A DNA stretch of 33,158 nucleotides from NCBI GenBank assembly GCA_000182565.2, contig KQ257458.1. One strand, written 5' to 3'. The position numbers and the translations under genes are program-made. Of the stretch, positions 1 to 31,487 are shown in pieces. Each line of letters starts with the position of its first letter. Within the stretch, counting starts at the first letter, position 1. This DNA comes from Spizellomyces punctatus DAOM BR117. Lineage: Eukaryota. The notes beneath the pieces were generated by a model. It made no database searches. It worked only from the letters and a program-made list of their open reading frames with translations, and had not been told where the DNA came from.

Positions 1-618
1 TATTTTGGATCATTACACTCCGAAGATAAATACAAACAAGTTTAAAATTTAAGTCTCTGTGCATGATCTGTATTTGCATATATTAAATATATTCTTGTCT
101 CAAAGTAAAAGAATTTGATTATCATCGACGCAAGCTGTAGACTCTGTGGAGGTGTTTACGTGAGTGGGAGTGGGGTGGACGTCAATTTCATGCAACGTCA
201 CCAATCAGATCTATTTCACACGGACTTTGCGAACATATCAATTGAACAATCATATTGGTGCTAGACTCTTTTTTCCTCCTGCCTTTCAGTCATTTACTTG
301 CAACGGCGGGCAAAAGGAAAACATTAGAAACATTCACACTCATTGGGACAAGTCAATATTCACCTGTCAAGCGGGTTGAATTGAATTATAGGTATGAAGC
401 GGAGGTATGTGATTCACCTTAAATCGACGATAAACCTGATGACTCGGTTTCAATTGATGAAAGAGATGGGTCAAATGACACTGTCTCACTTGGTGAGGGC
501 TTGGTACTCCTGGCTGAACGATTATATATTGTCGCTGGACTCTTTCCTCTTCCTCGCCTTTCAATCATCTGTCATTAGACTCTTTTTCTTCTTCCTGCCT
601 TCTCAATCATTTATTTAT

Positions 619-1170
619 ATGGCATCAGAATCATAATCAGAATCTGAACCATTTCGTTTCTGGGACTCACCAGCTGGCCAGCGACAGAGGTTCTCAGCAG
701 GCAGAGGAAGGATGTGTATGAATGTCATCCAGACGGCCAAACTTGTTTGATTCTCATATTTCCATTTCATAAAACAGCCAGACGGCGTGCAACCGCCGGA
801 TCAACCATCGGAATCGTGCCGAGCAAGGTATGTTCCAGCATAATGTTTGTCCACTGAGTGAGTTGACATTTGGGTTTGTTTCATGTCACCAGCTATATTG
901 ACGGAAATCCGCAACCAAACGGGCCGGGAGGGGAAATGGTACCCAAAGCCGCTTTTCAAGCTGTTCGGCAAATAGCTGAACAGCGGAGGGGTCAACCTCC
1001 AAATACCAAACACCGTTCTTGAGGTAAAGCATCATTGTGACATGACATGCATTGTATGGCGTTTTGGTTCCCTAAACTTTTTGTATTTTTGGATCATTGT
1101 GCACAGACGCTTCAGCTGATGAGCGAAGGCTTTATGGTGGCCTTCTTGGAAACTCGAACCTCCTCGCCCT
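619..1170 (+). pseudogene. Divergent histone H3-like gene copy 1 (frameshifted, early stop)
   Basis: Splicing GT-AG introns 828-892 and 1024-1106 and allowing small frameshifts gives RINHRNRAEQ/AILTEIRNQTGREG.MVPKAAFQAVRQIAEQRR.VNLQIPNTVLE/TLQLMSEGFMVAFLE.SNLLAL, colinear with H3 [76 protein letters not shown]. The putative ATG at 619 is followed by an in-frame TAA, so the 5' boundary is uncertain. Confidence 0.7.
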
Positions 1171-1171
1171 G

Positions 1172-1450
1172 CCCTATCGAGAATCCGCAACCGGAAGGGC
1201 GAGAAGGGGAAAGCAGCGATCCCGAAAGCTGCCTTCGAGAGCGTTTGCCGGGGAGGTCTTAACGTAAGTACCATTGTGAATTGAATGAAAGCTTTTGTAT
1301 GGCTTTTGGTATCCTAAAATTTGTATTTTTGGATCATTGTGCACAGGGGCTTCAACTGAGCGAGGGATTTATGGTCGTAATTTCTGGGAGGTTCAAATTT
1401 GCTCGCTGAACACTGTCGCTGCCGGACGATACAGCATCGGAAGGATGATA
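1172..1450 (+). pseudogene. Divergent histone H3-like gene copy 2 (internally deleted, frameshifted)
   Basis: RIRNRKGEKGKAAIPKAAFESVCR, intron 1264-1346 (homologous to 1024-1106), then GLQL-SEGFMVV.FLGGSNLLAEHCRCRTIQHRKD, resembling H3 alpha2-L2-alpha3 ([33 protein letters not shown]). Confidence 0.65.
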
Positions 1451-1455
1451 AATCA

Positions 1456-1524
1456 TCATTCTTTCGCTTGCTCTACAGTTCGGCGGCGACAGTGTTCGGC
1501 GAGGATATATGCATCTGTAAATTG
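1456..1524 (-). pseudogene. Inverted histone H3-like C-terminal fragment running into the gap
   Basis: Minus strand reads QFTDAYILAEHCRRRTVEQAKE*, homologous to LLAEHCRCRTIQ (copy 2) and [15 protein letters not shown] (2073-2361). Confidence 0.6.
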
Positions 1525-1525
1525 T

Positions 1526-2070
1526 NNNNNNNNNNNNNNNNNNNNNNNNNNNNNNNNNNNNNNNNNNNNNNNNNNNNNNNNNNNNNNNNNNNNNNNNNNN
1601 NNNNNNNNNNNNNNNNNNNNNNNNNNNNNNNNNNNNNNNNNNNNNNNNNNNNNNNNNNNNNNNNNNNNNNNNNNNNNNNNNNNNNNNNNNNNNNNNNNNN
1701 NNNNNNNNNNNNNNNNNNNNNNNNNNNNNNNNNNNNNNNNNNNNNNNNNNNNNNNNNNNNNNNNNNNNNNNNNNNNNNNNNNNNNNNNNNNNNNNNNNNN
1801 NNNNNNNNNNNNNNNNNNNNNNNNNNNNNNNNNNNNNNNNNNNNNNNNNNNNNNNNNNNNNNNNNNNNNNNNNNNNNNNNNNNNNNNNNNNNNNNNNNNN
1901 NNNNNNNNNNNNNNNNNNNNNNNNNNNNNNNNNNNNNNNNNNNNNNNNNNNNNNNNNNNNNNNNNNNNNNNNNNNNNNNNNNNNNNNNNNNNNNNNNNNN
2001 NNNNNNNNNNNNNNNNNNNNNNNNNNNNNNNNNNNNNNNNNNNNNNNNNNNNNNNNNNNNNNNNNNNNNN
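1526..2070. other. Assembly gap
   Basis: Run of N. Confidence 1.
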
Positions 2071-2072
2071 GA

Positions 2073-2361
2073 AACGTTTGTCGGGAGATCTTTGAGCAAC
2101 AAGGAGGAGCTGACCTCGATATTCAACAAAGCGCTTTCGACGTACGTAGTCATGTGTGAATTTGAATGAAAAGCTTTTGTATGGCTTTTTTGGTATCCTA
2201 AAATGTTGTATTTTTGGTATCATTGTGCACAGGCCCTTCAGTTAGCGGGCGAGGCCGTTGTGGTTGGATTCATTAAAGATGCGTATATGCTTGCCCAGCA
2301 TTGTCGCGACCGCACTGAACAGCAGCCGGAGGGTGGGGACAGTGGTGAAGCTAATGAATGA
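2073..2361 (+). CDS. Divergent histone H3-like protein, 3' part (exons 2073-2141, 2233-2361; 5' end in gap)
   Basis: Spliced frame is uninterrupted: [65 protein letters not shown]. Phase-0 intron GTACGT(2142)...CACAG(2232) at the same position as in the other copies. May also be a pseudogene since alpha3 looks degenerate. Confidence 0.7.
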
Positions 2362-3527
2362 TTGTGAGGAAATTTAAACATCTGCTAATGATATGCATAT
2401 GTATATACGATGTGTATTTTTGTTTCGAAGTAAAAGAATTGATTTGCTATCGCTTTGTGATTTGGAAACGTGTGGTTTCGAGTATTTATGTGGGAGGCAA
2501 CCCTCACCCTCGGGGCAAAATTTTAACTCTGTCCATTGAACGGGGCGGTAATGTTAAGTGACAAACTCTTTTTGTTCCAATTGTGAGGGCCCCGACGCAT
2601 AACCCGATTCCGCAAAGATTCAAATCCACATACCAGTCAGACATGAACTTTCTTTAAAACATCATTTTCAAAATGAATCGAACATCTTGATTGTCAATAA
2701 TAACTTTTGCGACCTTGTCACCATAGCTCGTCATCATCACTCTATAACCTGAGCATACAAGTCGTTAATTAAACAAGCCAGACCAAGCCAAATGGAATGA
2801 AAACTCACTCCGAAAAGTCAATAATACGATTCTCCTGCATCACGTTACAGTACATCCTATCTAGCTCCCTGGTTTACTAGAGAAGCACCAATTCCAGAAA
2901 TGTTTACGCCGCTTGTAATGACAGTCCCATTTGCCCTTTGTTAACACCATTCATGACACAGGCACGGAGAATCTTTGTCGCTCAAATGACGATTTTCAAC
3001 CAGGTATTTTGAATAATTCGTCCTGAAAGTATAGCAACGTCACGGCATTTGAGGTGTAGTAACCACATAACCCATCGTGAAAACCCTGCTGATAACACGG
3101 CATGGTGTCAATCGTTGTAACATGCAACGGTAGTAAGTTGCCGAATCTCCTAATGCGCGTACCACCAACTTCAAGTTCCCCGATGAGGTTTTACTTTCCT
3201 TTCCAGGCAATCTTGGACTTGACTACAGTAGTAACACGGTCATACTTTCAGAAAAGATGTGCGTTGGCAGTATAATGAGGATGGAGGGGGTTTAATGTAC
3301 ACTACAAGGTTGTTATCTGGGAGTTTTGTTCTTGCGCCTGTAACCCTGGATATTAGATAACGATCATTCCATTTGATAAACAGGTTCTGTGAATTGAATC
3401 CCAAGTGACGATCTTGGTTTTTTCTGATCGGTATGACAATTCCAGTACTGTCCCAAATACGTTCAACAGAGGACACCGCAAATTACTGTATCAAGTAATG
3501 AAGTACAGTGGCAGTAACGAAAACAAC

Positions 3528-3599
3528 GGCTCAGTGGTTTAGTGGTATAATACCCGCTTAGGGTGCGGGTGGTCCCGGGTTCGATTCCCGGCTGAGCCC
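3528..3599 (+). tRNA. tRNA-Pro (anticodon AGG)
   Basis: Acceptor stem GGCTCAG/CTGAGCC, anticodon arm CCCGC-TTAGGGT-GCGGG, T arm CCGGG-TTCGATT-CCCGG, oligo-T Pol III terminator at ~3621; no intron. Confidence 0.97.
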
Positions 3600-4019
3600 C
3601 TATGCACTCGATATGCTTTATTTTTTTTCTCCAACACTATACCTGAATTTTTTTTTTGTACATTCCCATCATCTTGTCAATATCAAACATTTGTTTTTTG
3701 ACGTTGGTACTGGTTGTGAATGTGGTTTTCTTTCGTTTTTTTTTACGAGACGAGGGTTTTATTTTTTTGGTGGGTTGTTTTTTGGATGTGGAGGTTTTTT
3801 GGGGTGCGGGTATCAGGGTCGATTGGCGGGTAGTGGTAGCATGCGTTGGTTTTTAAAAGGGGGGTGTATGTCAAAACTGATATACATTTTAAGAATAACA
3901 TGGAACCTTTTGGGGTTCACGGGTGCTTTTTTTATGATGCAAAAGTGGGCCAGAGGGCATTGCAGTTGTTACAGATATCTAAATAGAACTATTCTGGCGA
4001 TACAGATTATTCTTTCCTT

Positions 4020-5330
4020 TTTTGACTCGCATTTTGAATTGTTCGAGGTGTTGCGCTGGGGCTGCCTTCCATCGCTGAATCGCTGTCATTTTCTGATGGC
4101 CGTTTTGGGAGGCATTGCCGCGACGTTTGCGGTAGGCACTGCAAAAGTATGCAACTCTAGAGAGGGATTGAGTGCTGGTATTGGGTCGAGAGAGAGTGGC
4201 TTTTGGAAAGCGCTCCTGCCTTTTCCGGGAGAGATATTCAAACCTCGACGTAGTTCTTTCGCGTTGGGCGATGGGTCTTGGGGGTTGGGAGAAAGCAAGC
4301 TGATATTACTAGGGTGACAAGTCCCCCCTCCCCTCGTTAGTGGATATATCGTCTCGAGCCTACTGCCCAGGATAGGGTTTTACCCACCCTGCGGGGCAGG
4401 CGGGTGTAAATTGTTGAGCAATATGTGCTGTGCGCAAAAGTTTGTGCGTGCGCAGAGTTTTTATCGATAATGACATCTGCGAGAGTGCATGGTCACTAAA
4501 TCTCAAGTCCAAGGGGGGCTCGCAATTGGAAGAATTCGGATTTGTACCAACACTAGAGCGAAATTAAACGGCTTTACAAGGTTTTTGCTGAGTGTTAGGG
4601 AGCTCCCCTGTCCTTTAACTATCATGAGTAGCAAACGATTCGTAAATTGATAGAGCGGTTTTTTTGCGTTGGGCGATGGGTCTGGGGGGTGGGGGGAAAA
4701 CAAACTGATTGTTGCTCGGGTGACAAGTCCCACCTAGGTGTACGTATCGCTCTGGTACGGTCTCGGGTGGGTTAAACCCAACCCTGTATAGCCATCATCG
4801 CCCACTAGTGGGCGGCATCGGCATCTGAAGATAGGTAGTAGAGGCGGAGAGGAAGTAGGAAAAGATGACATGTACAATCGTGGCCAACCTAGTTTTAAGT
4901 TGTTTTAAAAAAAAAAGGATATCAAGCAATAGTAAATAAATGTTGGTAAAAACTCGTTTACCTTTTTGACTCGCTTTTTGGTTGTCCGAGGTGCACGGGT
5001 TGAATCGCTTGTCATTTTTCTGATGGTGATCGGCTCTAGCTTTTATTACTTGTAAAGAGGGAAGGGTCGATCAACAGGCGGAGGATCTCTGATGTTAGTG
5101 TGTGGTAGTGTGTGGAAGAATTCGGATTGTCCAATGGCCACAAGGTTTGCGGAAAGAGGCGAGAAGATCCAGTCTTTTCAACATGTCACGATTCAACGCA
5201 TCAATAAGCTTGACGTACAGCGCGTTGGGCGACGGGTCGTTCCCCTTCTTGTTGACGGGCATGACACGAGAGAGAGACCGAGTAGGGTGGGGAAAGCAAG
5301 TTGATGTTGGTCGGGTGTTTCCCCGCTTTG
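4020..5330. repeat. Decayed direct-repeat family (2-3 copies of several modules)
   Basis: GCGTTGGGCGA(T/C)GGGTC...GGGTG module at ~4260-4328, ~4666-4731, ~5222-5324; TTTGACTCGC...GAATCGCT..CATTTTCTGATGG at ~4021-4099 and ~4965-5026; TGGAAGAATTCGGATT at ~4528 and ~5113. Confidence 0.7.
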
Positions 5331-6817
5331 GTGTAAGTAGTGCCCTGGGTCTACGTGCCCAGAGTGGGGTTAGGGGGGGTTTTTTTTAAAATAGACGAAA
5401 TGTGTTGCTTAAGGTTATTTGCGTCGTGTTATACAATTTGATGGGATGGTTAAACTATAAATTTATAAATAGTTGCGGTTGTTTTTTCTGTCTGTTGCAA
5501 AGATATGGAAAACACTGGTAAAATAGAAGGATGAAAAACCACATGGACAAATTATACATTTTGTTTTTATATTTTAATAATTAATGGTGGAAATCTAGGT
5601 ATTTCATTTCGACGTCTAATCATTCAGTTTACGCTTTTGAATGAATGATATGGATTTTTATAATGTGTAAACCTCGATCCAAGGGAAAAAAAGTCTTGAC
5701 CCATTATTTTTCAAAAGATTTGGTTTTATTTTGATATTAACTGGGTTTTTTATATAAACCAATAAAGAGCGGCAAGTTCAATATAAGAACCACAAAAAAA
5801 CCAAAACCAGCAAAAACGAACAAAAAAAACACACACACACAAATAGGCTCGTCTGTCCATTTTGGCCCCTCTTTTATGGCATTCAACCTTTACAAAACGA
5901 GTGTATGTCAATACCATATAACAGTCCCTCCATGACTGACATTCCCTTCTCCAAGTTGACTATGACAAAAGTTTTCATGGATAACAAGGATCTATGACCA
6001 CTCTCGACAAGTTCTTATTCGACTTGTAAGTTACGAAATTGGATGACGAGAAAGAGTTTGACTCATCGGACTGGGTTCCAAAGATGGTCCTTACGGGCTG
6101 TAAACGCACACAAGTTTCCGCACGTCAGATCTATACTACCGAGGAAATGTTTTATTTGAATTGGTTACTGCCCAATTGATTCGTTTAAAAGGGATATATT
6201 CACAAGATTAGTTTTCGAATTTTTGGGAAATGGTTCCTCCAAGTGCGAAAATACAATGACGTATCCAACAAAAATGGGGGATACAAACATAATCATTAAC
6301 AAAAAGTTTCTGGTACCCATATTAGGATTCTGGATTTCAAAAAAAAAAGGTACAAGGGACTTAGAGTGGATGTTGCTGCGGTGCTAGGAACTTGGGAATC
6401 CGATGTTGATTCGCGGAACGAGTGGATGCGGGTGTGTTGTCGGGATGGGGATGTTGAGGTTTGGTTAAATTTGCAAAGGTGTAGTGTTTGGGGTGTGTGT
6501 GTATCGTTTTATCGAGGGTGGAGAGTTGAGAGCGCGGTGGTTTTTGTTGATTTGGAATGGTGGAAAAGTGGTGTGCCATGTTGTACAGTTGATTCCCTTA
6601 TGAGTTATCATGTCCAGGTGTACTGTACACTGCATAATGGAAAAAACATATTGCATTCATGCGCCTTGGAATGCATCGCAGTCGAGAGCGAGTTGCAAAA
6701 CGTGTAATACGTATATTAAAAAAAAAGTAAAACAAAAAAAGCATAATGCAAAACCTCAACTAACATCCCCATAAATACATTCAAGAACCGAAAGAGGGGG
6801 AACCAGCCTCCAAGTTT

Positions 6818-9101
6818 CTATTCTTTAGCAAACCAAACCACAACAGACATGCCCAACACCGCCGAAACAATCGTACCAATCAGTGCGATAATGCCTTTTG
6901 TCTCAAATTTGCCAGAAAGGTTATGCGGTCCATCAGGGGCACCCGTTAAATCCAACCCCTGTTTACCAGCAGCGTTTCCAGAGATGGGTTTCCCCAAAGC
7001 AGCACACTGAGATCCAACATACGATGGTGGGGTGATTGTTTTCTGCATTTCAAGGGGAGCTTCAATGAGTGTTGCGACGAGACCGACTTCCATGTGCCAT
7101 TGAATGTGGCAGTGGAAGAGCCAGACGCCGGGGTTATCGGATCGGAAGCGGATAACGGCTGAACCGAATGCGGGGATTTGGACCGTGTCGCGTCGGATGG
7201 GGTTGGGTTGGTCTGGGATGGGTTGGGTGGGGTCGTAGCGTTGCTCGCTTCTATAAACGATTTGGAAGCGGTGTCCGTGGAGGTGGACTGAACGGTAAAA
7301 TTGAGTCACGAGTTCCACATGCAAGAACAAAACAAGTAGTGACAACTTACAGGGGTGAGACCCGCCATCATCGTTATTCACCACCAACTGAATCATCTTG
7401 TTGTGCTCCAATACAATGGCATTGGTTTGCTTGCCGTAAATAGCGGGGTTCGTAGCGTCCTGTCCCGTCGTCAGAGCGGAAAGCATGGTCGGTGTAAGGG
7501 GTGCGACATAGGTATTGTTGTTGAACTGGCCGTGGTTGATACCGTCGTCGAGGACACCGAGGAACACGTTTAGATCGTGGGACACGTCGGGGGCGACAGA
7601 GGCCTCTTTGACGAGGGGGGCAATGGTCAAGTCGTCGAGGACCTCGGTGGAGGGTGGTGGAGCGTCGGATGTGGGGGCGGTGGGAGAGTACTCGATGAGA
7701 GCCGTCAAGTCTAGAAAATGTGGGTTTTAGTATTTGTTGGTTGCGAGTACCACACATGGTATTTACTCACTCAGATTCAGTGTAGGAGGAATCAGAGCAA
7801 ACATGCTATCATCCATCTTGATGGCCACATTATAATTCATATCGGTCGCGTTTTTCGCCTTGACCAACACCGAGTACCTCTGCGCAACGCCAATCTCAAT
7901 GTTTGACGCCGTCTTGGGTTCCGTGTCTACGCCATCGACTTCAATCACCTCCATCTCATGCCCGCCAATGCCCATGGTAAACATTGGGAAACCCGCCATG
8001 TTGATGACGCGGATGCGGTATGTTTTGTTGGGGATAAACGTCATTTTGGGGACATAGTCGGTTCCGTTCATGATGTGGACGATGCCAGAGTTGGGTGGGG
8101 GTTCGACGCCGCGGACGTTGAAGATGCCTCCATAGTCTTTCATGACCGTGTCATATTCATCGTGGTACCAGTCTGGCAAATGCACAGGTGAGTTGGGTTA
8201 GCTGAGAGTGCAAGCGAGATGTGTACGTGTGATGTATGCCCAACCAGAAATCTCATCGCACCGACATGCATGAATTTCCATGCATTCCCAGCCGAACACC
8301 AACCAGTGATATCCAAACGCCTGCAAGACAAACAATATCCCTGTCCCAACGAGTAAGGCGGCGCACGCCCACACTGCGATTTCCCTTGCGCGATTCTCCC
8401 AACCATCATCCAACTCTTCACGAAATTCCCTGGGCGATTCTCCCAACCATGATCTCACTCTCTCCCCCGTCATGACCACACACACGCCTACCCACCATGA
8501 AGGATAAGAGTGTATTCGTGATCGTATTTGGCGAGTTGGGCGGTTGGCGGAGGGTTGATAATGAGCGCACCGCGGAAACCATCGAGGTACTGTCCTCGAA
8601 CGTGAGCATGGTACCAATAGGTTCCCCACTGTTGCAGAGGGATTTCGTAGGTAAAGTTTGATCCTGGTGGAATTCCACTAGTTTCAATATTAGCATGTGA
8701 TTCTTGAAAAGAAACCGTAAGTCTTTATTACCATTGAGTGACGCCAGCAGCACCGTCAAAGTAGTTTGTCTTGTTGAAAAACATGCCGTGAGAGTGGAGT
8801 GCCGTGGGCACATCCAACGAATTGCGCTTGGAAAACATACTTAGCAACACTTTGGAGAATATCAAATGCTACACGGTTAACATACCACATTGATGACCAA
8901 AGTATCGTTGTAGTTTGCAATGAGTTTTGGTGGAGGCCATTTCCCATTGACACCAATGACCCTACGAGCAAAGTGACCGTCTGCATTCACGTTCTGAATG
9001 TATCCAATATCCAGATCATAGCGAACAATGGCTGCTGATGCCGTTGAAATCAGTAGTAGCAGCAGACATGATAGTGAAGATAATGAAGATGGCAGATGCA
9101 T
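6818..9101 (-). CDS. FET3: Multicopper ferroxidase (Fet3/FetC-like), 6 exons, 574 aa
   Basis: Exons 9101-8886, 8826-8732, 8677-8496, 8172-7771, 7710-7351, 7287-6818, all GT-AG and in phase. Signal peptide; Cu motifs HSHG, WYHAH, HPFHLHGH, WLFHCHIQWHMEVGL; Fet3-like acidic sites (GVEPPP, MDDSMF, DGGSHP); C-terminal TM helix; head-to-head with FTR1. Confidence 0.95.
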
Positions 9102-9771: not shown

Positions 9772-10971
9772 ATGGGATCAGTGTTTTCAGTTCCCACCTT
9801 TTTTGTTCTCTTTCGAGAGACAACAGAGGCTGCTCTCATCATTTCAGTCTTGCTGACATTCTGCAAGCAAATGTTTGGAGATGATCCTCTCATGCTCAAG
9901 CGATTAAACAAGCAGGTAAGAGTTTTATGTACATGTGTTTTTGCTACTGCTTGCTGACCTTGTTTGCACCACCAGATCTGGATGGGAACGGGTCTGGGCT
10001 TGCTCGTTAGTATTGCGATCGCGGCCGGCATCATTGGTGCATGGTACGCCATCTCGGAAAACCTTTGGGAGTCGCGCGAACTCGTCTGGGAAGGCACACT
10101 GGCCATCATTGCCTGTGTCATCATCACCATTGTCGGCATCACCATGCTCAAATCCTCTCGCAAGGGGCATCAGGAGAAATGGAGGAGAAAACTACTAAAG
10201 GAAATGGCTAGGCATAATCAGGCTCCTCAGGACACGGATTCGGAAGGTCTCTCGACCAATGCAACATCCCAAGCAACCCTTCAACCACTACCACAAGAAC
10301 AACAACAACGACCAGCTTCCACTCACTGGTTTGCTCGCATTGCCCCCAAAGCCTACGAAAAGCTCTCGTCAGAAAAGTACGCCCTCTTTCTCATTCCCTT
10401 TATTACCATCCTCCGTGAAGGCATTGAGGCAATCATTTTCATGGGCGGCGTCGGTCTCACCGAACCCGGCAAATCCATTCCTCTCCCCGCCATCACGGGC
10501 ATCCTTGTTGGGGCTCTTGTCGGGTTCATTACCTACCGCACGGGTTCCCGCGCCTCCCTCCAATGGTTCTTTATCGTCTCGACGTGTCTCTTGTTTCTCA
10601 TTGCCGCTGGATTACTGGCACGTGGTATCCTCTCGTTTGAAACCAATGCTTGGATGAAAAAAGTCTTGTACAATACCGGTGGAGGCGACGAGGGTGGACC
10701 CATTCCTATTGATTTGCGCGACAATGTATGGTATTTGAACTGTTGCGGCGCCAAAGAAAATGGCTGGACCATTTTCAATGCGATTGCAGGGTGGTCCAAT
10801 ATCGCCACAAAGGGGAGCATTACCGGGTATTGCTTGTATTGGATCGTGGTCAGTGGGTGGTTGATTAGTGTCAAGACGAGGGAGCAAAAGCTGGCCAAGC
10901 GGGGCGATGTCGATGAAATCAAAGTGACGACGACAGGGTCCCAAAAGGGGAGCCGAGTCGACATTGAGTGA
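9772..10971 (+). CDS. FTR1: High-affinity iron permease (Ftr1 family), 2 exons, 379 aa
   Basis: Exon 1 9772-9915 (MGSVFSVPTFFVLFRETTEAALII, first RExxE), intron 9916-9975 (GTAAGA...GCTGAC...CAG), exon 2 9976-10971 with ELVWEG, second RExxE (LREGIEA) and multiple TM segments. Confidence 0.96.
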
Positions 10972-16233: not shown

Positions 16234-16805
16234 TGTAACGGATTTTTTGTTGGTAGACTACGGTAAAGACAACTTGGGTCTCCTAGCAGGTTGTGTGGGT
16301 GTCCGTACTAGGAATCGTAGTCTCCAAATCCTTTCTTTGGGCGTCGGTAGCGACTTGAGGGCGAGAGGCAAGGAGAGTCGGTTAGTTGTGAACCGAGCAG
16401 GATTTAGAGGCTTCAGTGTGGGTGATCAGGCCGTTGAAGCACTCTGTTAGGTTCCTGTTAACCTAGGATTGGGGTTGAGAAGCTAGTTGTGGGGATTCTT
16501 TGTCACTACGGCTTCTGGCCGCCGACTTATTTTATTGAATTCCTCTTTTTATACAAGAATATGCTATGGTAACATCTACACTAGTTTCCGTAGCCTTCAT
16601 TAGGGTGGCGGCGTCCGATCTTCCCATCTCAGACCATCGCCATGATCGATCATGGCTGCGTAACGTATCCTTCACACTGCGCTGGTGTAGCCCAGAACCG
16701 AGCTTGATCTTAGGGGTTTTGAAGCTTAGGTTACAATTGCGGAAACCTCAATCGTGGTCACCTGATGCCTTTGAGCGAACCGGTTTATCAGAGTCGTTCA
16801 CTACA
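16234..16805 (-). repeat. 3' LTR of element 1 (type A)
   Basis: TGTAAC...CTACA termini; near-identical to 30916-31487; PPT adjacent. Confidence 0.95.
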
Positions 16806-16813
16806 TCCCCCCT
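16806..16813 (-). other. Polypurine tract
   Basis: AAGGGGGA immediately precedes the TG of the 3' LTR on the minus strand. Confidence 0.8.
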
Positions 16814-16862
16814 TCGAAAAAGAAGGTTCGGCGACTCGTCTGTGAGTGCCCGAACCTCGCTT

Positions 16863-18159
16863 CTACCATGACGCAACTGGATAGTCGTCGTCAGCTTCAA
16901 GGCTGTCTTCGTTGATCGTCCAGATTATGGTAGTGCACCCCATGACGTTCGCGCAGAACCAAATTTGGTCAGTGGCTTCTGGAGCCGGGGCTCCAGGTGT
17001 CCTGGAACCGTTGGCTCGGGTTACGTAGAGGGCTGTGAACGTCTCTGTGGCCCTTTTCAAGTTAACCGCTCGAAAGTGGTAATAGGCATGCTCCCAATGT
17101 TTGGGATGGAGCTGCTCTTCTGTGGTTTCAGCTGCATTGGCTAGCTTTAACAACACTGCTCTCGTGGCTTCGATGGCTATGTCCACAAAATCGTGGGCCT
17201 CGCAATCGGGCCAGAGGGTGAAGCGGGCCATTTTGGGGTTTCCGGCCGCATGTTGAGGGACCCCAGCGTCAAGCCAGGCAGCGCAGGGTACGTCCTGTAA
17301 TCTCTTGCCTATCTTTTTTGCATCAGTGATGATACCGACAGCAGCTTGACCGCCGTCGGAAGCCCTACTGTAGGGCTCCGCGATATGCATCGTGAGGGGC
17401 TGGCTCATGGCGTAAGGTTTCGAAGCCCCGTCAACCACCCAATCTTCACCACGATAGTGTTCAAGGGTTTTGTTTGGGTCTTTGTACAACTCATGAATCC
17501 AAACTTTGACCCAGGTGGCCATGGCTGCTCCGAGCCGCTCGATAGAGTTCTTGGCAGCGAAGGCATCGCTTACTTCTGACCAGGGATAGCCTTCCTCAAG
17601 GGTAGAGAGGATGCTGACTCCTTGTTGTCCTCGGATATTGGTGGTCATGGTGTTGGAAACGAAAGCTTTTGTTTCGGTGTCGATAGAAAGGGTTTGCGAA
17701 GCAGAGTGAGTGTGTAAGGGAAGTAGTTTGTTGGTAGTTGAAGAAGAAAAAAGAGGGGGGGCGAGCAGGGGCGCCCTTTTAAGGTTGTCGCCGGCTGATT
17801 TTGACAGCTCGGATGTGCGTAAGCGTGATCGGGAGGCTTGGTGTGGCGTTCTTGACTGGTGAGGTAAGCCACGCGAAACTGGTTTTCTTTCTGGTGAGAG
17901 GGCGTGATTATCACGTGAGCTATCATCCGGATAAACCGCGAAGCATTGGTGGTCGGAAGTGTAAGCCGTATCTTCCGGGGCGTCGCCTGCAAGGCTGACT
18001 ACCAAAGAGTCCTCTACTAGCGCGCTAGTGGGGGCTCTGGATCTCCAGTACTCTTCTAAGGCTTCGGAAGCCTCTGTTAGGGCTTCCTCTGGTTCCCAGG
18101 TATCCTCATGGGGTGGGTATCCAGACCAACGTATTCGAAATTGACGTTTTCCGCGCCTG
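16863..18159 (-). CDS. Distal part of element 1 pol: second half of chromodomain, linker and in-frame unknown domain (possible separate 261-aa ORF from ATG 17648)
   Basis: RRGKRQFRIRWSGYPPHEDTWEPEEAL continues GEFEVEAIVDHRT from 24575; frame is open to TAG at 16863, 50 bp before the PPT. Confidence 0.8.
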
Positions 18160-18759
18160 TGTAACGATGAGGACGTCTTCGAGAGATCGCGAGTAAGCCC
18201 AAATCGGACGCGGGAAGCACGAATCGCGTGACCAACTCCACCGATTGGGTTACCGCGACCGAAAGAACCGGTTCGGAGAATGGCAATTGGCGCATTAGAT
18301 TTCAGCGTGCCTCGTACAACCTGTGGAGGCCCGAGCCAGTGCGGAAAAGGAAGAGATCGGTACCGCCACCAATAAATCAGTTGCGGTGCAGCGACACCCA
18401 TTAGTTTAGTTTAGTTTAACAGTTTATCCAAGAATCTTGTATAAAAAGGATGTATTCAATAAAATAAGTCGGGGGCAGAAGCCGTAGCGACAAAAAATCC
18501 CCACAACTAGCTTCTCAACCCCAATCCTAGGTTAACAGGAACCTAACAGAGCGCTTCAATGGCCTGATCACCCGCACTGAAGCCTCTAAATCCTGCTCGG
18601 TTCACAACTAACTGACTCTCCTTGCCTCTCGCCCTCAAGTCGCTACCGATGCCCAAAGAAAGGATTTGGAGACTACGATTCCTAGTACGGACACCCACAC
18701 AACCTGCTAGGAGACCCAAGTTGTCTTTACCGTAGTCTACCAACAAAAAATCCGCTACA
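18160..18759 (+). repeat. 5' LTR of element 2 (type B, different U3)
   Basis: 600 bp, TG...CA, followed by PBS; from ~18436 (TCTTGTATAAAA) onward it matches type A LTR, upstream it does not. Confidence 0.88.
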
Positions 18760-18774
18760 TGGTGGAGAAGCGCG
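18760..18774 (+). other. Primer-binding site (probably tRNA-Ala)
   Basis: TGGTGGAGAAGCGCG directly after the LTR CA; complementary to a ...CUCCACCA tRNA 3' end. The tRNA identity is inferred. Confidence 0.75.
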
Positions 18775-18913
18775 ACGAACTGCCTTCCCCTCTCAAATTC
18801 AGCTGAAAACCTTATTTGGTCGTACCGAAACTCTTGCGCAAACCGAGATCTGCTCAGGTAGCTACTCGGAAACCTTTTCTCTCGTTTCGGAAACAGACTT
18901 CATGAAACCGAGA

Positions 18914-21718
18914 ATGATGCCGGTTGAACGCTCTCCAACGCGAGGCCGCTCACATGTGATCCAGACTCGTAGTCAGGGTCCTGCGGAGGACGTCAAAGTC
19001 CCTCCCGCAACACGCCCAAGGCGTTCAGGGACCACTTCCGTTGAACCGGAAGCCCCTAACTTGGCCACGATGGCCTCTGAAGTGGCAGCGTTAAAAGAAG
19101 ACATTGCCCACTCGACTGCTGCAATGCAGTTGGCAACTCAAAATCTTACGGAACAGCTTCATAGGCTTTCCGAACGTCAGACAGCGGCGGATGAGCGCCT
19201 CGCACGAGCCTTAGAAGCCCTAGCGCATCACCCGCTGCCTGAACAACCTCTCATAGCATGAGCTACAAGAGAACGGTCCGCAACCCCGTGGGAAACGTCG
19301 GACACACCAAGGGAGCATACCGAACCAAGTTTTTCAGGTCCGGTGCCTCCAATCCAAGTGCCAGCGGCCCCGTGGGCCAGCGACACCAAGGTCGATTCCT
19401 TGAAAGCAAAGGACGTACCCGAGTTTACGGGCAAAAGAAACCAAGACGTTGAAGAATGGCTCAACAAAGTCCAACTTCTTCAAAACGTTAGCGCAACGTC
19501 GGATGCCAGGATGGTACAGCTCCTACCAGCCATGATAGCCGAGAAAACCCCTGCCAACGCTTGGTTTTACACTCTGGAAGCCCAGGAAACTTGCTCGTGG
19601 ACCTGGAAAAGGTGGAAAGAAGAACTGCTTCGAGAGTTCCGAGATCCCCTAACCAAGTCCAAGCGCAAAACCGAATATGTGCGCTGCCACGCGAACCCCA
19701 AAGAATTTCGCAGCTTTCTCGTGTTCATTGACCACAAAACTCATCTCTGGCGCCTCGCATACGGCGACCGGGCAAACATAGAATGTCCCGCTGACCAGCA
19801 TTTCGACCTAATAGTCGAACAATTGCCCAGCGACATCCAAATCATGGTCAAATCCTGTAACGTCATGAACCTGACCAAATTAAAAGACTTCCTGCGCCTT
19901 TATTTTGGCTCTGATGACACCAGAAAACGAGACCCTTGCTACAGCGGTGCTGCTGAAGCTCAGAAGAAGTCACAAAAGACCGGAATCGACAAAGGCCCTA
20001 AGCAGACGGCTCAACATAAAACCAGAAACCCCGAAAAGGGTCGCGACGGCCCTCAGAAGATGGTTCCGGACCCCAACACGGAACCACCGGCACCCTGCAA
20101 ATTCTGTCAGAAAAAGCATTGGAATGTTTTCTGCTGGCAGAACCCGAACCGAAAAGATCCTGAAGATGGAAAGAAGGGACCATACGGAGCACCCATGCCC
20201 GCAGGTTGGAAACCCAAACAGGAGTCCAAGAAGTCGTACATAGTGGAGCTGGACTCGATGTCCGCTACCACCGAGACTCTTTTTTCGGCTTCGGAACTGG
20301 AAAGAACGGAAGCCGCTAATCAAGGATTCCACACCATCGGATTCTTTCATTCACCCGAGCACTCGGAATCAACAATTTTGATGACCGCACCTCTTTCCGA
20401 GGTCACGGTGACCAAGGAAGAGGACCCCCGCACGCCCACGCAGGGCTGGGACCAAGTCTGGGACAACATAGCCATCATCTGGGGCACCCCGCAAGTGGCT
20501 CTGATGATGGGCAACAACCCCCGCGCGCTCAGCTTCTTCGCCAAAGAACCGAAGCGAGGCGCCGGGCACCTCGGGAACGACCCCTACGCAGTCGCGTGGA
20601 GTTCCCACCACCTCTACATCGCTGCCGCAGCCGAAGCTGACAAGGATCGAATCCTGCGAAAAGTCTGAGAAGACGGTACCCCTCGTTTGATCCTCCTTGC
20701 CTGGATAAGGCTCGACGAGCGTGAGAAATTCTTGATGTGGAGCTCCGAAGATCCTGTTATCTTTGATTCTTACGCCAACCTGCAACTGGTGGCATTTCTC
20801 CTGACAGGCAATATCGTTCGCTCAGACTATTATTATCGTCGCGGAAACCCCAAATTTCTGCACGTTAAAGACCATCCACGTCTCCAAAGACACGAAGAGA
20901 GCGAATGGACGTGTATAGTCATGCTGGCTATCGAACAAGTTGCTCGCCAGAATAAAACAACAAAACCACAAAACGACAAATCTAGAGAGCACTTTGAGAG
21001 TGCAATCAAGGCTACGGAAGCAACAATTAATGACATCGCGCCCCATTTCGAGGTCGCGGTGCCTTCCATCAACGCCTTCTACTCGGTAGATTTAGGCGAT
21101 GTACTCAAAAGCCAGACCAAGACCCAAACGCAGCCTTGCTGGACGCTAGCCGTCATCGCTCAGCTCTGGGCACCTGTGGTGCTAGACACAGGAGCCTGCA
21201 AGTCTCTGGTTTCCGACACGTACCAGGGCCTTCTGTTCTCCGAAACCGATTTGCAGGATGCGGAAACGATGGCTTTCAAAGGCATTGGTGGACGTATCTC
21301 ATCTACCAAGACAGTATGCCTCGAAACTTCCCTCAGAGGCCGCGGAGGAGAATACCTGACTTTCCGCGCCTATTTCCGAGTCATTGCATACGGGAAACCT
21401 CTCATCATCCTAGCCAACGACATTCTGGGACATTTGAAACTCCAAACCTTGGTTCAGGAACCCCCGTTACCCAGTTTCGCGGTGACGCTCAAGAATCCGG
21501 ACATCCTTATCCCTTGCTCCATAACGGATGAGCTGGACACCGATCACATGCGCGGCACGCCATACAAGACCAAGCAGGGTGAATTCATGAAGGATGTGTC
21601 AATGCCACGGCTGACCAAAGCCAAAGCTCAGAAGTCTAGATTAACCATGTTAATCACGGGACAGACGCGCGTGGCAGCCCAAACTTTTCTCATCGAAAAC
21701 CCTCTTGAGGCCACCGCT
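18914..21718 (+). pseudogene. gag-protease of element 2, truncated before RT
   Basis: Near-identical to 30761-27958; CGA>TGA stops at 19259 and 20666; capsid-like VPEFTG...WL, CKFCQKKHWNVFC knuckle, VLDTGA protease. Confidence 0.92.
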
Positions 21719-22020
21719 TGCTGCAAGTGGTCACAGAACGGCGCAGAACGGAAGCTCTTGCTACATGTTCTCCCTACATAGCATTTTTATGAGAAAAAGG
21801 GGGGGACACAAAATACACTCCATGATTTTTGGGAAAAAAGCTGTATAAATTTGGTTCAATTGATGAAAAAGATAGAACTAAATAGAAATATCGACATGCC
21901 TGAGCCGGCATTGGCACTCCGTGCCGGCATGTTTAAATGGCCTCGTTGGTTTCCTGCTGAAAAACTGGTTGCATATTTCATGTAGGCAACTCAGGCGTCA
22001 GAACTCATCCCATCTCAACA

Positions 22021-23181
22021 TTACCTTCGAGGCATACCAGCCGGGATTGGCCGCTCCGCGCCCGGCATCTTCCGCCGCGGGATTTCTATGTGCGAAAATG
22101 TACCCTTCGGACGAACTTTTAACTTTTTCTGCTGCGCACGAGTACGAGCGGGCTGGATTCGGACAGGTATCAAGTCTTCAAGTTCTCTTGCTGCCTGCTT
22201 TTGCAAACGATCCCTTTTTTGTAATGCGGCCGCAACTTTGATTGTAACTGGTTCCTCGGTTTTGATGAGTTCATTATAGTTGAAAATTCGATCGGGAATC
22301 CCCTCTACCACATATCTATATGACCGCAGTTTGTCGAATGGTTTAATGACTTTCCCAATCCGATAAACATTGCTAGAGAAATTTTCTCGATGTGCCTTTT
22401 TGAACACATTGCCTTCATGTTTGACACGAACATGATCACCGATGGAGAATATTTCAGGTTCTTTCTGATGCATCTTCTCCCAGTATCTTTCCAAGTTTAT
22501 CAATGCCTTATACGGTTTCTCGATTGCTTCATGGGGAGACATCCCAATACCGCGATGTTCTCGCCTGTTAATCATTGATNNNNNNNNNNNNNNNNNNNNN
22601 NNNNNNNNNNNNNNNNNNNNNNNNNNNNNNNNNNNNNNNNNNNNNNNNNNNNNNNNNNNNNNNNNNNNNNNNNNNNNNNNNNNNNNNNNNNNNNNNNNNN
22701 NNNNNNNNNNNNNNNNNNNNNNNNNNNNNNNNAATCCCCCTGACATGTATGCTCCACCAGCGTCAGTAACGATTTTGTTGGGTCTCATTTTATAAGTCTT
22801 TAGCGAACGATCGAGAATATATCGCATTGCGGAACATACGGAAGTCTCGTCCAATTTCTTCAATGGTTGTGTAAATACCATCTTTGAAAACTTGTCCACG
22901 CATACCAAAATATGAGAACATCCTTTATTCTGACGAGGATAAGCGTCCGATCCTAAAGCGAGACAATCGCTTTCCCAAACATCAAATGGTGCATATGTAC
23001 GCTGAACGTTCAGGTTCAGCCTCTTCTTTTTTCGATGTATTTGATGAGTACGTTCTTTCTCCAGAAATGACTTTATGTCTTTCAAGGACAAGTCTGTCCC
23101 TTGTCTCTTCAGCATATTCTTCAAGCCGGATGCTCCTACCGGAGCTCCAGGCGTGTAATACAACTTCCGGAGTTCCTCCAT
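22021..23181 (-). CDS. Polinton/Maverick-type retroviral-like (rve) integrase
   Basis: LRKLYY...G N-terminus, WESD, ILVCVDKFSK, IVTDAG, N...HRGIGMSP, FSIGDHVRV...FKK....FS..VYRI; standalone, intronless, no HHCC or RT context. Catalytic E region lies in gap 22580-22732. Confidence 0.82.
   Translation of the reverse strand: MEELRKLYYTPGAPVGASGLKNMLKRQGTDLSLKDIKSFLEKERTHQIHRKKKRLNLNVQRTYAPFDVWESDCLALGSDAYPRQNKGCSHILVCVDKFSKMVFTQPLKKLDETSVCSAMRYILDRSLKTYKMRPNKIVTDAGGAYMSGGXXXXXXXXXXXXXXXXXXXXXXXXXXXXXXXXXXXXXXXXXXXXXXXXXXXXSMINRREHRGIGMSPHEAIEKPYKALINLERYWEKMHQKEPEIFSIGDHVRVKHEGNVFKKAHRENFSSNVYRIGKVIKPFDKLRSYRYVVEGIPDRIFNYNELIKTEEPVTIKVAAALQKRDRLQKQAARELEDLIPVRIQPARTRAQQKKLKVRPKGTFSHIEIPRRKMPGAERPIPAGMPRR
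22580..22732. other. Assembly gap
   Basis: Run of N inside the integrase ORF. Confidence 1.
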
Positions 23182-23201
23182 ATTTGTATGTAACGCTTAA
23201 T

Positions 23202-23936
23202 TTATTTCATATAGAATTGTTTTACAGCATCGTTCGTTCTTTTTTGTTTTCGTCTATTCTCTGAAATGTCTAATGGTGCAAGATTTTCATAGTGATTTGA
23301 TCCGCCTTGGGATTCAGGCATTATGTGATCGATTTCAAAGTTCCATCGGTAGTCATTCCATGACATGCCCTTAAGATCTTTCGACTTTTTGAGCAGTTCT
23401 TGGATGTATGACAAGAATTCTTCAAAAGTGCAACCTTCAACCCATGAGAGAGAGGTCCTCAGTTGCGCCATCCAAGCGGGATCCTCCATCTGGTTTCTAA
23501 GTGAAATAGAGGAGAATGATATAAATTTGCTGTGCTTTGCCCGAGACACTGCTGTATATAACATTCTCTTCGACATCTTCTCTACCTCGTGGATGGTGAA
23601 CGGTCTGTTAAATGTTTGCCCTTGTGCCTTGTGTACTGTGGTACAATAACCAGAAAGAAAAAACTTTTGAAATTTGTTCCTGGGTACAGTGCATTTCATT
23701 ATACCATCGGATAAATCCTCTTTTTCACAAATGACCTTTGTGTCATTCCAACTGGAAATACGCCATCGGGTTCCCTTGATCACTCCTTGATTGCGCATTG
23801 GCTTTCTAGAAACCACAGGGGATCCCTTGATGAAAATACAATCTTGCGTTTTTGAATCTTTGGGGATTCTTGGGCACTTTAGGATCCTTGCTTTGTTCCT
23901 CTCCAATTGTTCATCTCGTTTCATGTTAAGATCATT
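23202..23936 (-). CDS. 5'-truncated SF1B (RecD/Pif1-like) helicase C-terminus fused to an HNH endonuclease domain
   Basis: GYCTTVHKAQGQT and MLYTAVSRA (motifs V/VI), then EIDHIMPESQGGSNHYENLAPLDISENRRK. Walker A/B absent because the frame is cut by an LTR fragment at 23937. Confidence 0.85.
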   Translation of the reverse strand, partial: NDLNMKRDEQLERNKARILKCPRIPKDSKTQDCIFIKGSPVVSRKPMRNQGVIKGTRWRISSWNDTKVICEKEDLSDGIMKCTVPRNKFQKFFLSGYCTTVHKAQGQTFNRPFTIHEVEKMSKRMLYTAVSRAKHSKFISFSSISLRNQMEDPAWMAQLRTSLSWVEGCTFEEFLSYIQELLKKSKDLKGMSWNDYRWNFEIDHIMPESQGGSNHYENLAPLDISENRRKQKRTNDAVKQFYMK

Positions 23937-24349
23937 CCGAGCAGGATTTAGAGGCTTCAGTGCGGGTGATCAGGCCGTTGAAGCGCTCTGTTAGGTTCCT
24001 GTTAACCTAGGATTGGGGTTGAGAAGCTAGTTGTGGGGATTCTTTGTCGCTACGGCTTCTGGCCGCCGACTTATTTTATTGAATTCCTCTTTTTATACAA
24101 GAATATGCTACGGTAACGTCTACACTAGTTTCCGTAGCCTTCATTAGGGTGGCGGCGTCCGATCTTCCCATCTCGGACCATCGCCATGATCGATCATGGC
24201 TGCGTAACATATCCTTCACGCTGCGCTGGTGTAGCCCAGAACCGAGCTTGATCTTAGGGGTTTCGAAGCTTAGGTTACAATTGCGGAAACCTCAATCGTG
24301 GTCACCTGATGCCTTTGAGCGAACCGGTTTATCAGAGTCGTTCGCTACA
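23937..24349 (-). repeat. Truncated type A LTR (third insertion) abutting the 3' LTR remnant of element 2
   Basis: Matches 31075-31487; intact CTACA end at 24349. Confidence 0.92.
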
Positions 24350-24574
24350 ACAGGAACCTAACAGAGTGCTTCAACGGCCTGATCACCTGCACTGAAGCCT
24401 CTAAATCCTGCTCGGTTCACAACTAACCGACTCTCCTTGCCTCTCGCCCTCAAGTCGCTACCGACGCCCAAAGAAAGGATTTGGAGACTACGATTCCTAG
24501 TACGGACACCCACACAACCTGCTAGGAGACCCAAGTTGTCTTTACCGTAGTCTACCAACAAAAAATCCGTTACA
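24350..24574 (+). repeat. Remnant (last 225 bp) of the 3' LTR of element 2
   Basis: Matches 18535-18759; ends CCGTTACA followed by CCTG. Confidence 0.92.
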
Positions 24575-30500: not shown

Positions 30501-30761
30501 TTCGGAAAGCCTATGAAGCTGTTCCGTAAGATTTTGAGTTGCCAACTGCATTGCAGCAGTCGAGCGGGCAATGTCTTCTTTTAATGCTGCCACTTCAGAG
30601 GCCATCGTGGCCAAGTTAGGGGCTTCCGGTTCGACGGAAGTGGTCCCTGAACGCCTTGGGCGTGTTGCGGGAGGGACTTCGACGTCCTCCGCAGGACCCT
30701 GACTACGAGTCTGGATCACAGGTGAGCGGCCTCGCGTTGGAGAGCGTTCGACCGGCATCAT
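24575..30761 (-). pseudogene. gag-pol of element 1 (several premature stops, a frameshift near 25.85-25.9 kb)
   Basis: gag, Zn knuckle, VLDTGA protease, RT (DPYPFP, DANKGFYQI, MPFGPKTAP, FVDD), RNase H (LHSDAS, ELEA, VITDHRAL, VADTLSR), integrase (H-GGGH...C..C, PQGDGQSER, KWLGP), start of chromodomain; gap 25234-25532. Confidence 0.95.
25234..25532. other. Assembly gap
   Basis: Run of N inside the gypsy integrase. Confidence 1.
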
Positions 30762-30900
30762 TCTCGGTTTCGTGAAGTCTGTTTCTGAAACAAGAGAAAA
30801 GGTTTCCGAGTAGCTACCTGAGCGGATCTTGGTTTGCGCAAGAGTTTTGGTATGACCGAATAAGGTTTTCAGCTGAATTTGAGAGGGGAAGGCAGTTCGT

Positions 30901-30915
30901 CGCGCTTCTCCACCA
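30901..30915 (-). other. Primer-binding site of element 1
   Basis: TGGTGGAGAAGCGCG on the minus strand directly after the 5' LTR. Confidence 0.8.
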
Positions 30916-31487
30916 TGTAACGGATTTTTTGTTGGTAGACTATGGTAAAGACAACTTGGGTCTCCTAGCAGGTTGTGTGGGTGTCCGTACTAGGAATCAT
31001 AGTCTCCAAATCCTTTCTTTGGGCGTCGGTAGCGACTTGAGGGCGAGAGGCAAGGAGAGTCGGTTAGTTGTGAACCGAGCAGGATTTAGAGGCTTCAGTG
31101 TGGGTGATCAGGCCGTTGAAGCACTCTGTTAGGTTCCTGTTAACCTAGGATTGGGGTTGAGAAGCTAGTTGTGGGGATTCTTTGTCGCTACGGCTTCTGG
31201 CCGCCGACTTATTTTATTGAATTCCTCTTTTTATACAAGAATATGCTACGGTAACATCTACACTAGTTTCCGTAGCCTTCATTAGGGTGGCGGCGTCCGA
31301 TCTTCCCATCTCGGACCATCGCCATGATCGATCATGGCTGCATAACGTATCCTTCACGCTGCGCTGGTGTAGCCCAGAACCGAGCTTGATCTTAGGGGTT
31401 TCGAAGCTTAGGTTACAATTGCGGAAACCTCAATTGTGGTCACCTGATGCCTTTGAGCGAACCGGTTTATCAGAGTCGTTCGCTACA
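30916..31487 (-). repeat. 5' LTR of element 1 (type A)
   Basis: 572 bp, TG...CA, followed by PBS and gag. Confidence 0.95.

Follow-up and report, generated by a model that had tools for sequence, protein, structure and literature searches.

What are the short histone H3-like segments on a Spizellomyces punctatus DAOM BR117 contig (KQ257458.1), and do they belong to working genes? In the 33,158-nt stretch of this contig that we analysed (the window) we identified at least five related H3-like units within positions 1–2520: copies A, B and D on the plus strand, the inverted copy C, and a left-edge remnant, here called Z (Table 1). With the exception of C the units are arranged head-to-tail, and once their GT-AG introns are spliced out, their alignment to histone H3 runs in order from the alphaN helix to loop 2 (L2). 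A preliminary description of this DNA had listed at least four segments, three on the plus strand and one inverted; these are real, as all of the peptides it quoted were found at their places in the sequence, and the remnant at 1–180 is a fifth unit that was absent from it. The description was also correct in that the cluster is invisible in an ORF list, since no piece reaches 75 codons between stops and so none appears there, and in that the copies diverge strongly from one another (50–69% exon identity).

Layout of the array

No intact copy of the unit is visible in the window; a search of the remaining 30 kb of the 33-kb window found no further copies, and an Rfam search of positions 1–3700 gave no match inside the cluster. 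Unit Z has lost its last exon (about 115 nt) by deletion, and its 45–115 region pairs with 2370–2440 at 75% identity (repeat family D3); as Z lies at the very start of the window, the array continues beyond that edge. Of the three pyrimidine-rich motifs between Z and copy A, the third (582–601) is just upstream of the copy A ATG, and these motifs probably arose by duplication of promoter or 5' leader sequence. The frameshifts described below sit in a draft assembly beside a gap, and may in part be sequence errors. Among the sequencing runs listed for this DNA none was of RNA; three runs with small shares of it gave zero cover of 1–3150, with cover only at the tRNA and at 3170–4500.

Table 1. 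Positions of the H3-like units and adjoining features in the window.
Feature	Position	Strand	Description
Unit Z (left-edge remnant)	1..180	+	3' end of last intron, then 3' flank directly; aligned with 2208–2520
Pyrimidine-rich leader-like motif, three copies	255..618	+	266–285, 540–559 and 582–601; repeat family D5
Copy A exon 1	619..713	+	ATG at 619; tail Ser/Glu-rich, then Arg-rich
Copy A exon 2	779..827	+	Tail end and alphaN start; start at 778 by phase
Copy A intron	828..892	+	GTATGT..CAG
Copy A exon 3	893..1023	+	alphaN, alpha1, L1
Copy A last intron	1024..1106	+	GTAAAG..CAG; 3' half conserved among A, B and D
Copy A last exon	1107..1170	+	alpha2; cut off near L2 codons, where B begins
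Copy B, whole	1166..1452	+	Intron at 1264–1346
Copy B partial exon 3	1171..1263	+	Begins inside alphaN; alpha1 present; repeat family D6
Copy B last intron	1264..1346	+	GTAAGT..CAG; 90% identity to D intron
Copy B last exon	1347..1452	+	alpha2-L2; 3' end adjoins inverted copy C; inverted repeat I1
Copy C	1453..1524	-	alpha2 end, L2, short tail; read from 1524 to 1456, the rest in gap
Assembly gap	1526..2070	.	545 N; covers 5' parts of copies C and D
Copy D exon 3, visible part	2071..2141	+	alpha1 end and L1; no defect visible
Copy D last intron	2142..2232	+	GTACGT..CAG
Copy D last exon	2233..2361	+	alpha2, L2, 14-residue acidic tail, stop at 2359–2361; no alpha3
3' flank of copy D	2362..2520	+	About 70–75% identity to window 40–180

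Resemblance to histone H3 and to CenH3

The spliced peptides were scored with a home-built canonical-H3 HMM (from 17 distinct H3 ORFs on IMG/VR contigs), alongside all 1557 six-frame pieces of the window, and this check upheld the H3 homology after splicing that the preliminary description had proposed. The best of the 1557 pieces was the last exon of copy D (E 0.0097), the next best having an E-value of 2; when spliced, D scored 19.9 bits (5.3e-5 at Z=1557) over H3 positions 72–118, which none of 2000 shuffles reached (best shuffle 5.8 bits). For copy A, translated across its breaks with an X placed at each, the score was 14.1 bits, again above all of 2000 shuffles (best 11.2), and this match covers H3 positions 37–107 in one domain, with the H3-specific alphaN followed by alpha1, L1, alpha2 and L2 in order. 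Of the residues aligned to the H3 consensus, 20/47 are identical in D and 20/68 in A. A profile of four alpha2-L2 pieces searched against PDB gave 157 sequences at E≤10, with H3, Cse4 and CENP-A chains from E 0.014; all of the 60 matches listed were to H3, CENP-A or Cse4 except four (the designed repeat protein 6xr1_A, the zinc finger 5ion_A, 2ly8_A, which is named Scm3, and 7on1_e, which carries a locus name only), and the H3-family matches always fell at alpha2-L2. An Atlas look-up with the D last exon listed only Histone clusters as neighbours, although with a best score of 0.87 this is a lead only, and the copy C piece matched positions 95–112 of the 122 in the Pfam Histone profile PF00125 with an E-value of 0.03, below the 26.4-bit cut-off. 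Judged by sequence comparison, the homology of the cluster to histone H3 is confirmed.

The order alphaN, alpha1, L1, alpha2, L2 is common to canonical H3 and the cluster copies, but unlike canonical H3, B, C and D lack alpha3 and the C-terminal end and the readable copies are broken by stops and frameshifts. Two further differences had been put forward earlier: the lack of an ARTKQ-type tail, which holds for copy A, the only copy with a visible N-terminus (in the other copies the tail is either missing or within the gap), and a loop 1 longer by one residue, which D shows as a single residue inserted where alpha1 passes into L1. Among the traits by which CenH3 is diagnosed are a unique tail, a lengthened L1 and a DAY motif, and the cluster resembles CENP-A, Cse4 and other CenH3 proteins in the divergent tail of A, the additional L1 residue of D, and a DAY motif, which lies at the end of alpha2 in the last exon of D and aligned to CENP-A-derived chains in the PDB search with that exon. 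CenH3 proteins, in contrast to the cluster copies, include alpha3 in a complete fold and also have a C-terminal tail. In the four-piece profile search Cse4 was nominally the best natural match at 18.3 bits (E 0.014), with H3.3C at 17.6 bits and canonical H3 at about 15.1–15.5 bits; the margin of Cse4 over H3.3 (17.6 bits) is meaningless, and the cluster may stem from either CenH3 or H3.

Defects, truncation and tests for constraint

Copy A has an in-frame TAA at 634–636 in its first exon, the putative donor GT of which is placed at 714 by reading phase only, and splicing of 779–827 to 893–1023 yields the alphaN-like stretch. Its third exon has two indels, near 937–941 and near 985–990, with the alpha1 codons out of frame, and the original frame meets a TAG at 973–975; as its last exon is by hand count 1 nt shorter than that of D over the same 19 codons, a third frameshift is present, bringing the defects of A to one stop codon and three frameshifts in total. 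Copy B duplicates only part of the unit and, as its sequence reads, has both an internal deletion and a frameshift: it has no N-terminus and no codons for L1 and the start of alpha2, and its last exon is 1 nt longer than that of D over the same 19 codons, the frameshift being near 1379–1381. With these defects A, B and the left-edge remnant are pseudogenes. Copy C has two stop codons at 1453–1458. Copy D is free of defects across its 198 visible coding bases, its 5' part being inside the gap, and could be intact.

In copies B, C and D the sequence stops at TGA-rich sites that are homologous among the three and lie no more than 17 codons past the 'RT' of L2, and thus helix alpha3 is absent; these three copies do not encode a complete histone fold, and pieces within 1–3600 gave no credible match to H3 profile positions 119–136 (alpha3 and the C-terminal end). 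As this truncation is common to B, C and D, it is older than their divergence.

Intron positions are conserved among the copies, and the introns are similar in style to that of a bona fide local gene, the FTR1 gene of the window (about 60 nt, GTAAGA..CAG). Conservation is higher in the last intron than at the neighbouring third codon positions and in the surrounding exons, a pattern that simple neutral decay of whole units does not predict. That this intron has outlasted the exons could reflect gene conversion confined to it or a functional element within it; a consensus fold of the three last introns (-3.0 kcal/mol) gave no convincing structure. Identities at codon positions 1, 2 and 3 were 27/42, 29/42 and 24/42 for A and B (p 0.33) and 22/35, 26/35 and 17/35 for B and D (p 0.057), and the corresponding test for C and D gave p 0.12, so that protein constraint, as far as these counts can register it, leaves no significant signal. 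In the 9-codon L2 block common to B, C and D, the differences are mostly silent third-position changes, a hint of past or present protein constraint. Transitions and transversions numbered 40:30, 35:46 and 29:35 at a GC content of 0.46–0.48, and the cluster has no RIP-like substitution bias.

Relics, a living family or a captured fragment

We think it probable that the cluster consists of relics of a lineage-specific gene, truncated and derived from H3, that was duplicated locally. The ancestral unit would have carried a leader of its own, an Arg-rich tail of non-canonical type and three short GT-AG introns, and would have coded for alphaN, alpha1, an L1 one residue longer than that of H3, alpha2 and L2, with a stop soon after and no alpha3. 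Its array may then have grown and been rearranged by unequal or illegitimate recombination, a mode of duplication that we infer; such recombination is suggested by the start of B in alphaN where A ends, by B and C meeting tail-to-tail, and by the exon loss at the left edge. If this is correct, the whole cluster would be a relic making no working histone, and C and D would be non-functional as well. The birth-and-death family of the preliminary description is borne out in its several diverged copies and in the gene death seen in A, B and the remnant, but not by any intact copy visible in the window or any relative found by our searches.

As an alternative, it is possible but rather unlikely that the cluster belongs to a living family of fast-evolving H3-like or CenH3-derived proteins without alpha3, with D, C or copies elsewhere being expressed. 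The broken copies would then be the 'death' side of a birth-and-death turnover, and a product without alpha3 could use alpha2 to pair with H4 or a histone chaperone, acting not as a nucleosome subunit but as a regulator or decoy. Consistent with this, D is open across its visible part and is the best H3 match, the truncation predates the divergence of three copies, silent changes prevail in the L2 block and the B–D comparison approaches a codon-position bias, and the tail, L1 and DAY motif are CenH3-like; however, no intact copy was seen and the codon-position tests were not significant. In addition, we know of no stable histone fold without alpha3, which counts against a living family, as does the lack of relatives among the proteins searched. 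When the last exon of D (42 aa) was compared exhaustively by HMMER with 1.84 billion representatives, no relative was found, such a short query having little power, and of the 32 and 247 candidates from two word-seeded searches of longer proteins, none reached E≤10. The longer-protein collection includes proteins of the sister species Spizellomyces sp. 'palustris', to one of which the FTR1 ORF in the window has 92% identity, in agreement with the chytrid host named in the preliminary description. Among the 1.84 billion representatives, two matches at E≤1e-3 were rejected, being repeat proteins of unrelated Pfam families. In metagenome contigs the conserved intron motif had 0 matches and a protein pattern had 597, none of which was confirmed. 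A search of literature listings found no account of such an H3-derived family in chytrids. We are more doubtful still about a fuller version, in which Spizellomyces would have a living, diversifying family of short H3-derived proteins, lacking alpha3 and a canonical tail, with D or unseen paralogues expressed, serving as a partner or decoy for H4 or a histone chaperone or representing a CenH3 offshoot, and with a conserved regulatory element in the last intron that would account for its better preservation.

Capture and multiplication of an H3 fragment by a transposon (transduplication), the cluster being nested or rearranged copies of the element, seems improbable, and the preliminary description's suggestion that the family might be repeat-borne found no support in the window. 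The idea has a precedent in Dothideomycetes, where 90% of 784 H3-like copies are truncated to 71–100 residues inside hAT elements (PMC6710886); these copies are, like those of the cluster, multiple, truncated, degenerate, unannotated and fungal. The window is also rich in mobile elements, with Ty3/gypsy-type integrase and chromodomain ORFs at 16.8–25.9 kb. However, the captured transcript in the Dothideomycete case was intronless and RIP-mutated, whereas the cluster keeps introns at conserved places, its transitions are not above its transversions, and its copies are in tandem or inverted rather than dispersed within the window, in a chytrid and not an ascomycete host. No terminal inverted repeats were found in 1–3600 (the left border of the array being beyond the window), no transposase was seen in the one ORF of 2.4–6.8 kb that was scanned (3562–4317, without a Pfam family), and the other 30 kb of the window holds no further copy.

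The least probable explanation, a chance resemblance in which low-complexity or repeat DNA yields H3-like words on translation, is disfavoured: although the D last exon by itself matched H3 and CENP-A chains in PDB only at E 1.1–1.6, a phmmer search of PDB with the copy C piece gave three matches (a designed repeat protein, CENP-T and a zinc finger) and none to H3, seven of eight single pieces had no Pfam match (three of the eight, 1103–1260, 888–972 and 1346–1409, being in an unintended frame) and exon 3 of copy B had no family in the Atlas, the segments follow one another in H3 order on one strand across canonical GT-AG introns, the spliced scores are far above all shuffles, the D exon ranks top among all six-frame pieces, and the four-piece profile matches almost solely H3-family chains at a single place in the fold.

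If the units are no more than relics, the finding adds a modest point of annotation: a chytrid genome would contain an unannotated graveyard of an H3 offshoot specific to its lineage, and ORF-based views would be seen to miss histone-like genes whose exons are short. Spizellomyces is genetically tractable, and tagging and localisation of a product are feasible. If one copy were alive, a tail-less and alpha3-less H3 derivative would have been kept and duplicated, and the histone fold put to an unusual use.

Arrangement of the H3-like copies

Our reading of positions 1–3600, together with every stop-to-stop frame, recovered all of the H3-like peptides in the preliminary description. Its three forward segments and one inverted segment correspond to copies A, B, D and C, respectively, and the array proved larger by a fifth remnant, unit Z, whose presence at the left edge indicates that the array therefore extends leftward past the window start. 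The start of copy B is the exact point at which the last exon of copy A is cut off. The four visible introns are 65–91 nt long with GT..CAG ends in each, similar to the GTAAGA..CAG intron of the neighboring FTR1 gene, and no further H3-like copy was found in the remaining 30 kb of the window.

Features of the H3-like array and of the rest of the window
Feature	Position	Strand	Remarks
Unit Z	1-180	+	aligns with D intron end and D 3' flank; without last exon
Copy A start	ATG 619	+	in-frame TAA 634-636
Copy A first intron borders	donor 714; next exon from 778	+	donor inferred
Copy A intron	828-892	+	between exon ending 827 and exon 893-1023
Copy A last intron	1024-1106	+	last exon from 1107
Copy B	1171-1452	+	intron 1264-1346; starts inside alphaN
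Copy C	1524-1453	-	inverted; its 3' end adjoins the 3' end of B (inverted repeat I1)
Assembly gap	1526-2070		545 N; hides rest of copy C
Copy D	visible from 2071	+	intron 2142-2232; stop 2359-2361
tRNA-Pro(AGG)	3528-3600		
Multicopper oxidase	6818-8840	-	
FTR1 iron permease	9772-10968	+	one intron, ~60 nt
Ty3/gypsy-type chromodomain ORF	16863-18410		
Ty3/gypsy-type integrase ORFs	22021-23196, 24542-25888		
1076-codon open frame	27759-30989	-	

Relationship to histone H3

Taken individually, the pieces are too short to settle whether they are H3. When eight were searched against Pfam (three of them in an unintended frame), only copy C matched Histone PF00125 (E 0.03, 15 bits, profile positions 95–112 of 122), and the same piece alone retrieved no H3 chain from PDB. 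The last exon of copy D matched six PDB sequences at E≤10, of which five, with the alignment at alpha2-L2, are CENP-A or H3/CENP-A chimeras (E 1.1–1.6); its listed Atlas neighbors were Histone clusters throughout, the best score of just 0.87 making this a lead only. We also searched with an H3 HMM built from a degenerate motif scan of IMG/VR (35 loci, yielding 20 complete H3 ORFs, of which 17 were distinct), against which the last exon of D ranked first among 1557 six-frame pieces of the window (E 0.0097; runner-up E 2). Spliced copy D reached 19.9 bits (E 5.3e-5, Z=1557) over H3 positions 72–118, with one residue inserted where alpha1 meets L1, and copy A, translated across its breaks with X in their place, reached 14.1 bits over positions 37–107; both exceed the maxima of 2000 shuffles (5.8 bits for D, 11.2 bits for A), and identities to the H3 consensus were 20/47 and 20/68, respectively. 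A profile of alignment A4, comprising four alpha2-L2 pieces, retrieved 157 PDB sequences at E≤10; the 60 listed were H3, CENP-A or Cse4 chains matched at alpha2-L2, save four (a designed repeat protein, a zinc finger, an Scm3-named chain and a chain with only a locus name). Judged by these sequence comparisons the homology to H3 is solid, and the observation of an H3-like cluster is confirmed.

Three CenH3-like traits occur in the cluster (its unique tail, a lengthened L1 and the DAY motif), but the PDB profile scores do not separate the two classes (Cse4 18.3 bits, H3.3 17.6 bits), and CenH3 has the alpha3 helix, whereas copies B, C and D lack it.

Truncation, decay and a conserved intron

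Copies B, C and D end at homologous TGA-rich sites, at most 17 codons past the 'RT' of L2, and no credible match to H3 profile positions 119–136 was found within 1–3600; their common ancestor therefore already lacked alpha3. Two indels throw the alpha1 codons of copy A out of frame, the original frame meeting a TAG at 973–975, and copy B has neither L1 codons nor anything upstream of alphaN. A hand count across 19 corresponding last-exon codons put A one base below D and B one base above it.

A living H3-like family without alpha3 is the strongest competing explanation, although we consider it unlikely. Copy D is open across its 198 visible coding bases, and silent changes are in the majority in a short L2 block common to B, C and D. 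Identities at codon positions 1/2/3 were 27/42, 29/42 and 24/42 for A-B (p 0.33), 22/35, 26/35 and 17/35 for B-D (p 0.057), and 15/19, 15/19 and 11/19 for C-D (p 0.12), giving no significant sign of protein-level constraint in these pairs.

The last intron, which precedes the alpha2-L2 exon, is conserved above its flanking exons: intron identity against third codon positions was 63/80 versus 24/42 for A-B (Fisher p 0.02), 59/83 versus 18/39 for A-D (p 0.0095) and 76/84 versus 17/35 for B-D (p 1.8e-6), with 53/54 positions identical in the 3' half of the B-D intron. It had no Rfam match, no stable consensus fold and no occurrence of its motif elsewhere in the window; candidate causes are gene conversion confined to the intron or an intronic functional element.

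Genomic setting and origin of the array

Also encoded in the window are a multicopper oxidase, a kinesin, Ty3/gypsy-type integrase and chromodomain ORFs, and an FTR1 permease with 92% identity to a Spizellomyces sp. 'palustris' protein and 55% to a Powellomyces hirtus protein. The host is a Spizellomyces chytrid. Lying divergently, the oxidase and FTR1 make up the pair typical of high-affinity iron uptake in fungi. Minus-strand frames at 4086–4379, 4503–4733 and 5095–5385 share a similar short peptide word ending DPSPNA, pointing to a dispersed repeat or a decayed element in the stretch from the tRNA gene to the oxidase gene. Just downstream of copy D, sub-threshold C/D-box snoRNA matches at 2635–2728 (-) (snR69 24.7 bits, gathering 50; SNORD37 23.1 bits, gathering 45) are probably chance. 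Four pieces with equal H3-HMM scores (16286–16381(-), 18612–18707(+), 24427–24522(+), 30968–31063(-)) suggest repeated LTR-like segments across 16286–31144; the 1076-codon frame, which matched no Pfam family at E≤0.001, may be the gag-pol portion of a retroelement or a gene of another kind. Contigs of a rhizosphere metagenome run were near-identical to 3725–4010 and 4385–4484, so that sample may contain this organism, or one closely related to it, at low depth.

Relatives of the family were absent from two word-seeded protein searches and from metagenome contigs, an exhaustive search gave two matches, both unrelated, and no contig from three sequencing runs lay over the cluster. In literature listings, no family of this kind was found described for chytrids. 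The nearest published case found (PMC6710886) is in Dothideomycetes, where truncated H3-like copies amplified by hAT are described as intronless, RIP-mutated and inside transposons. In contrast to that account, the cluster copies retain introns, their transitions do not exceed transversions (GC 0.46–0.48), and no element borders were seen around them within 1–3600, all of which makes a transposon-borne H3 fragment improbable here. Chance resemblance to H3 is hardly credible, as none of the 2000 shuffles reached the score of spliced D or read-through A. We consider it probable, and the likeliest reading, that the cluster is a local array of a lineage-specific H3 offshoot, which would have been truncated previously and would now be decaying.
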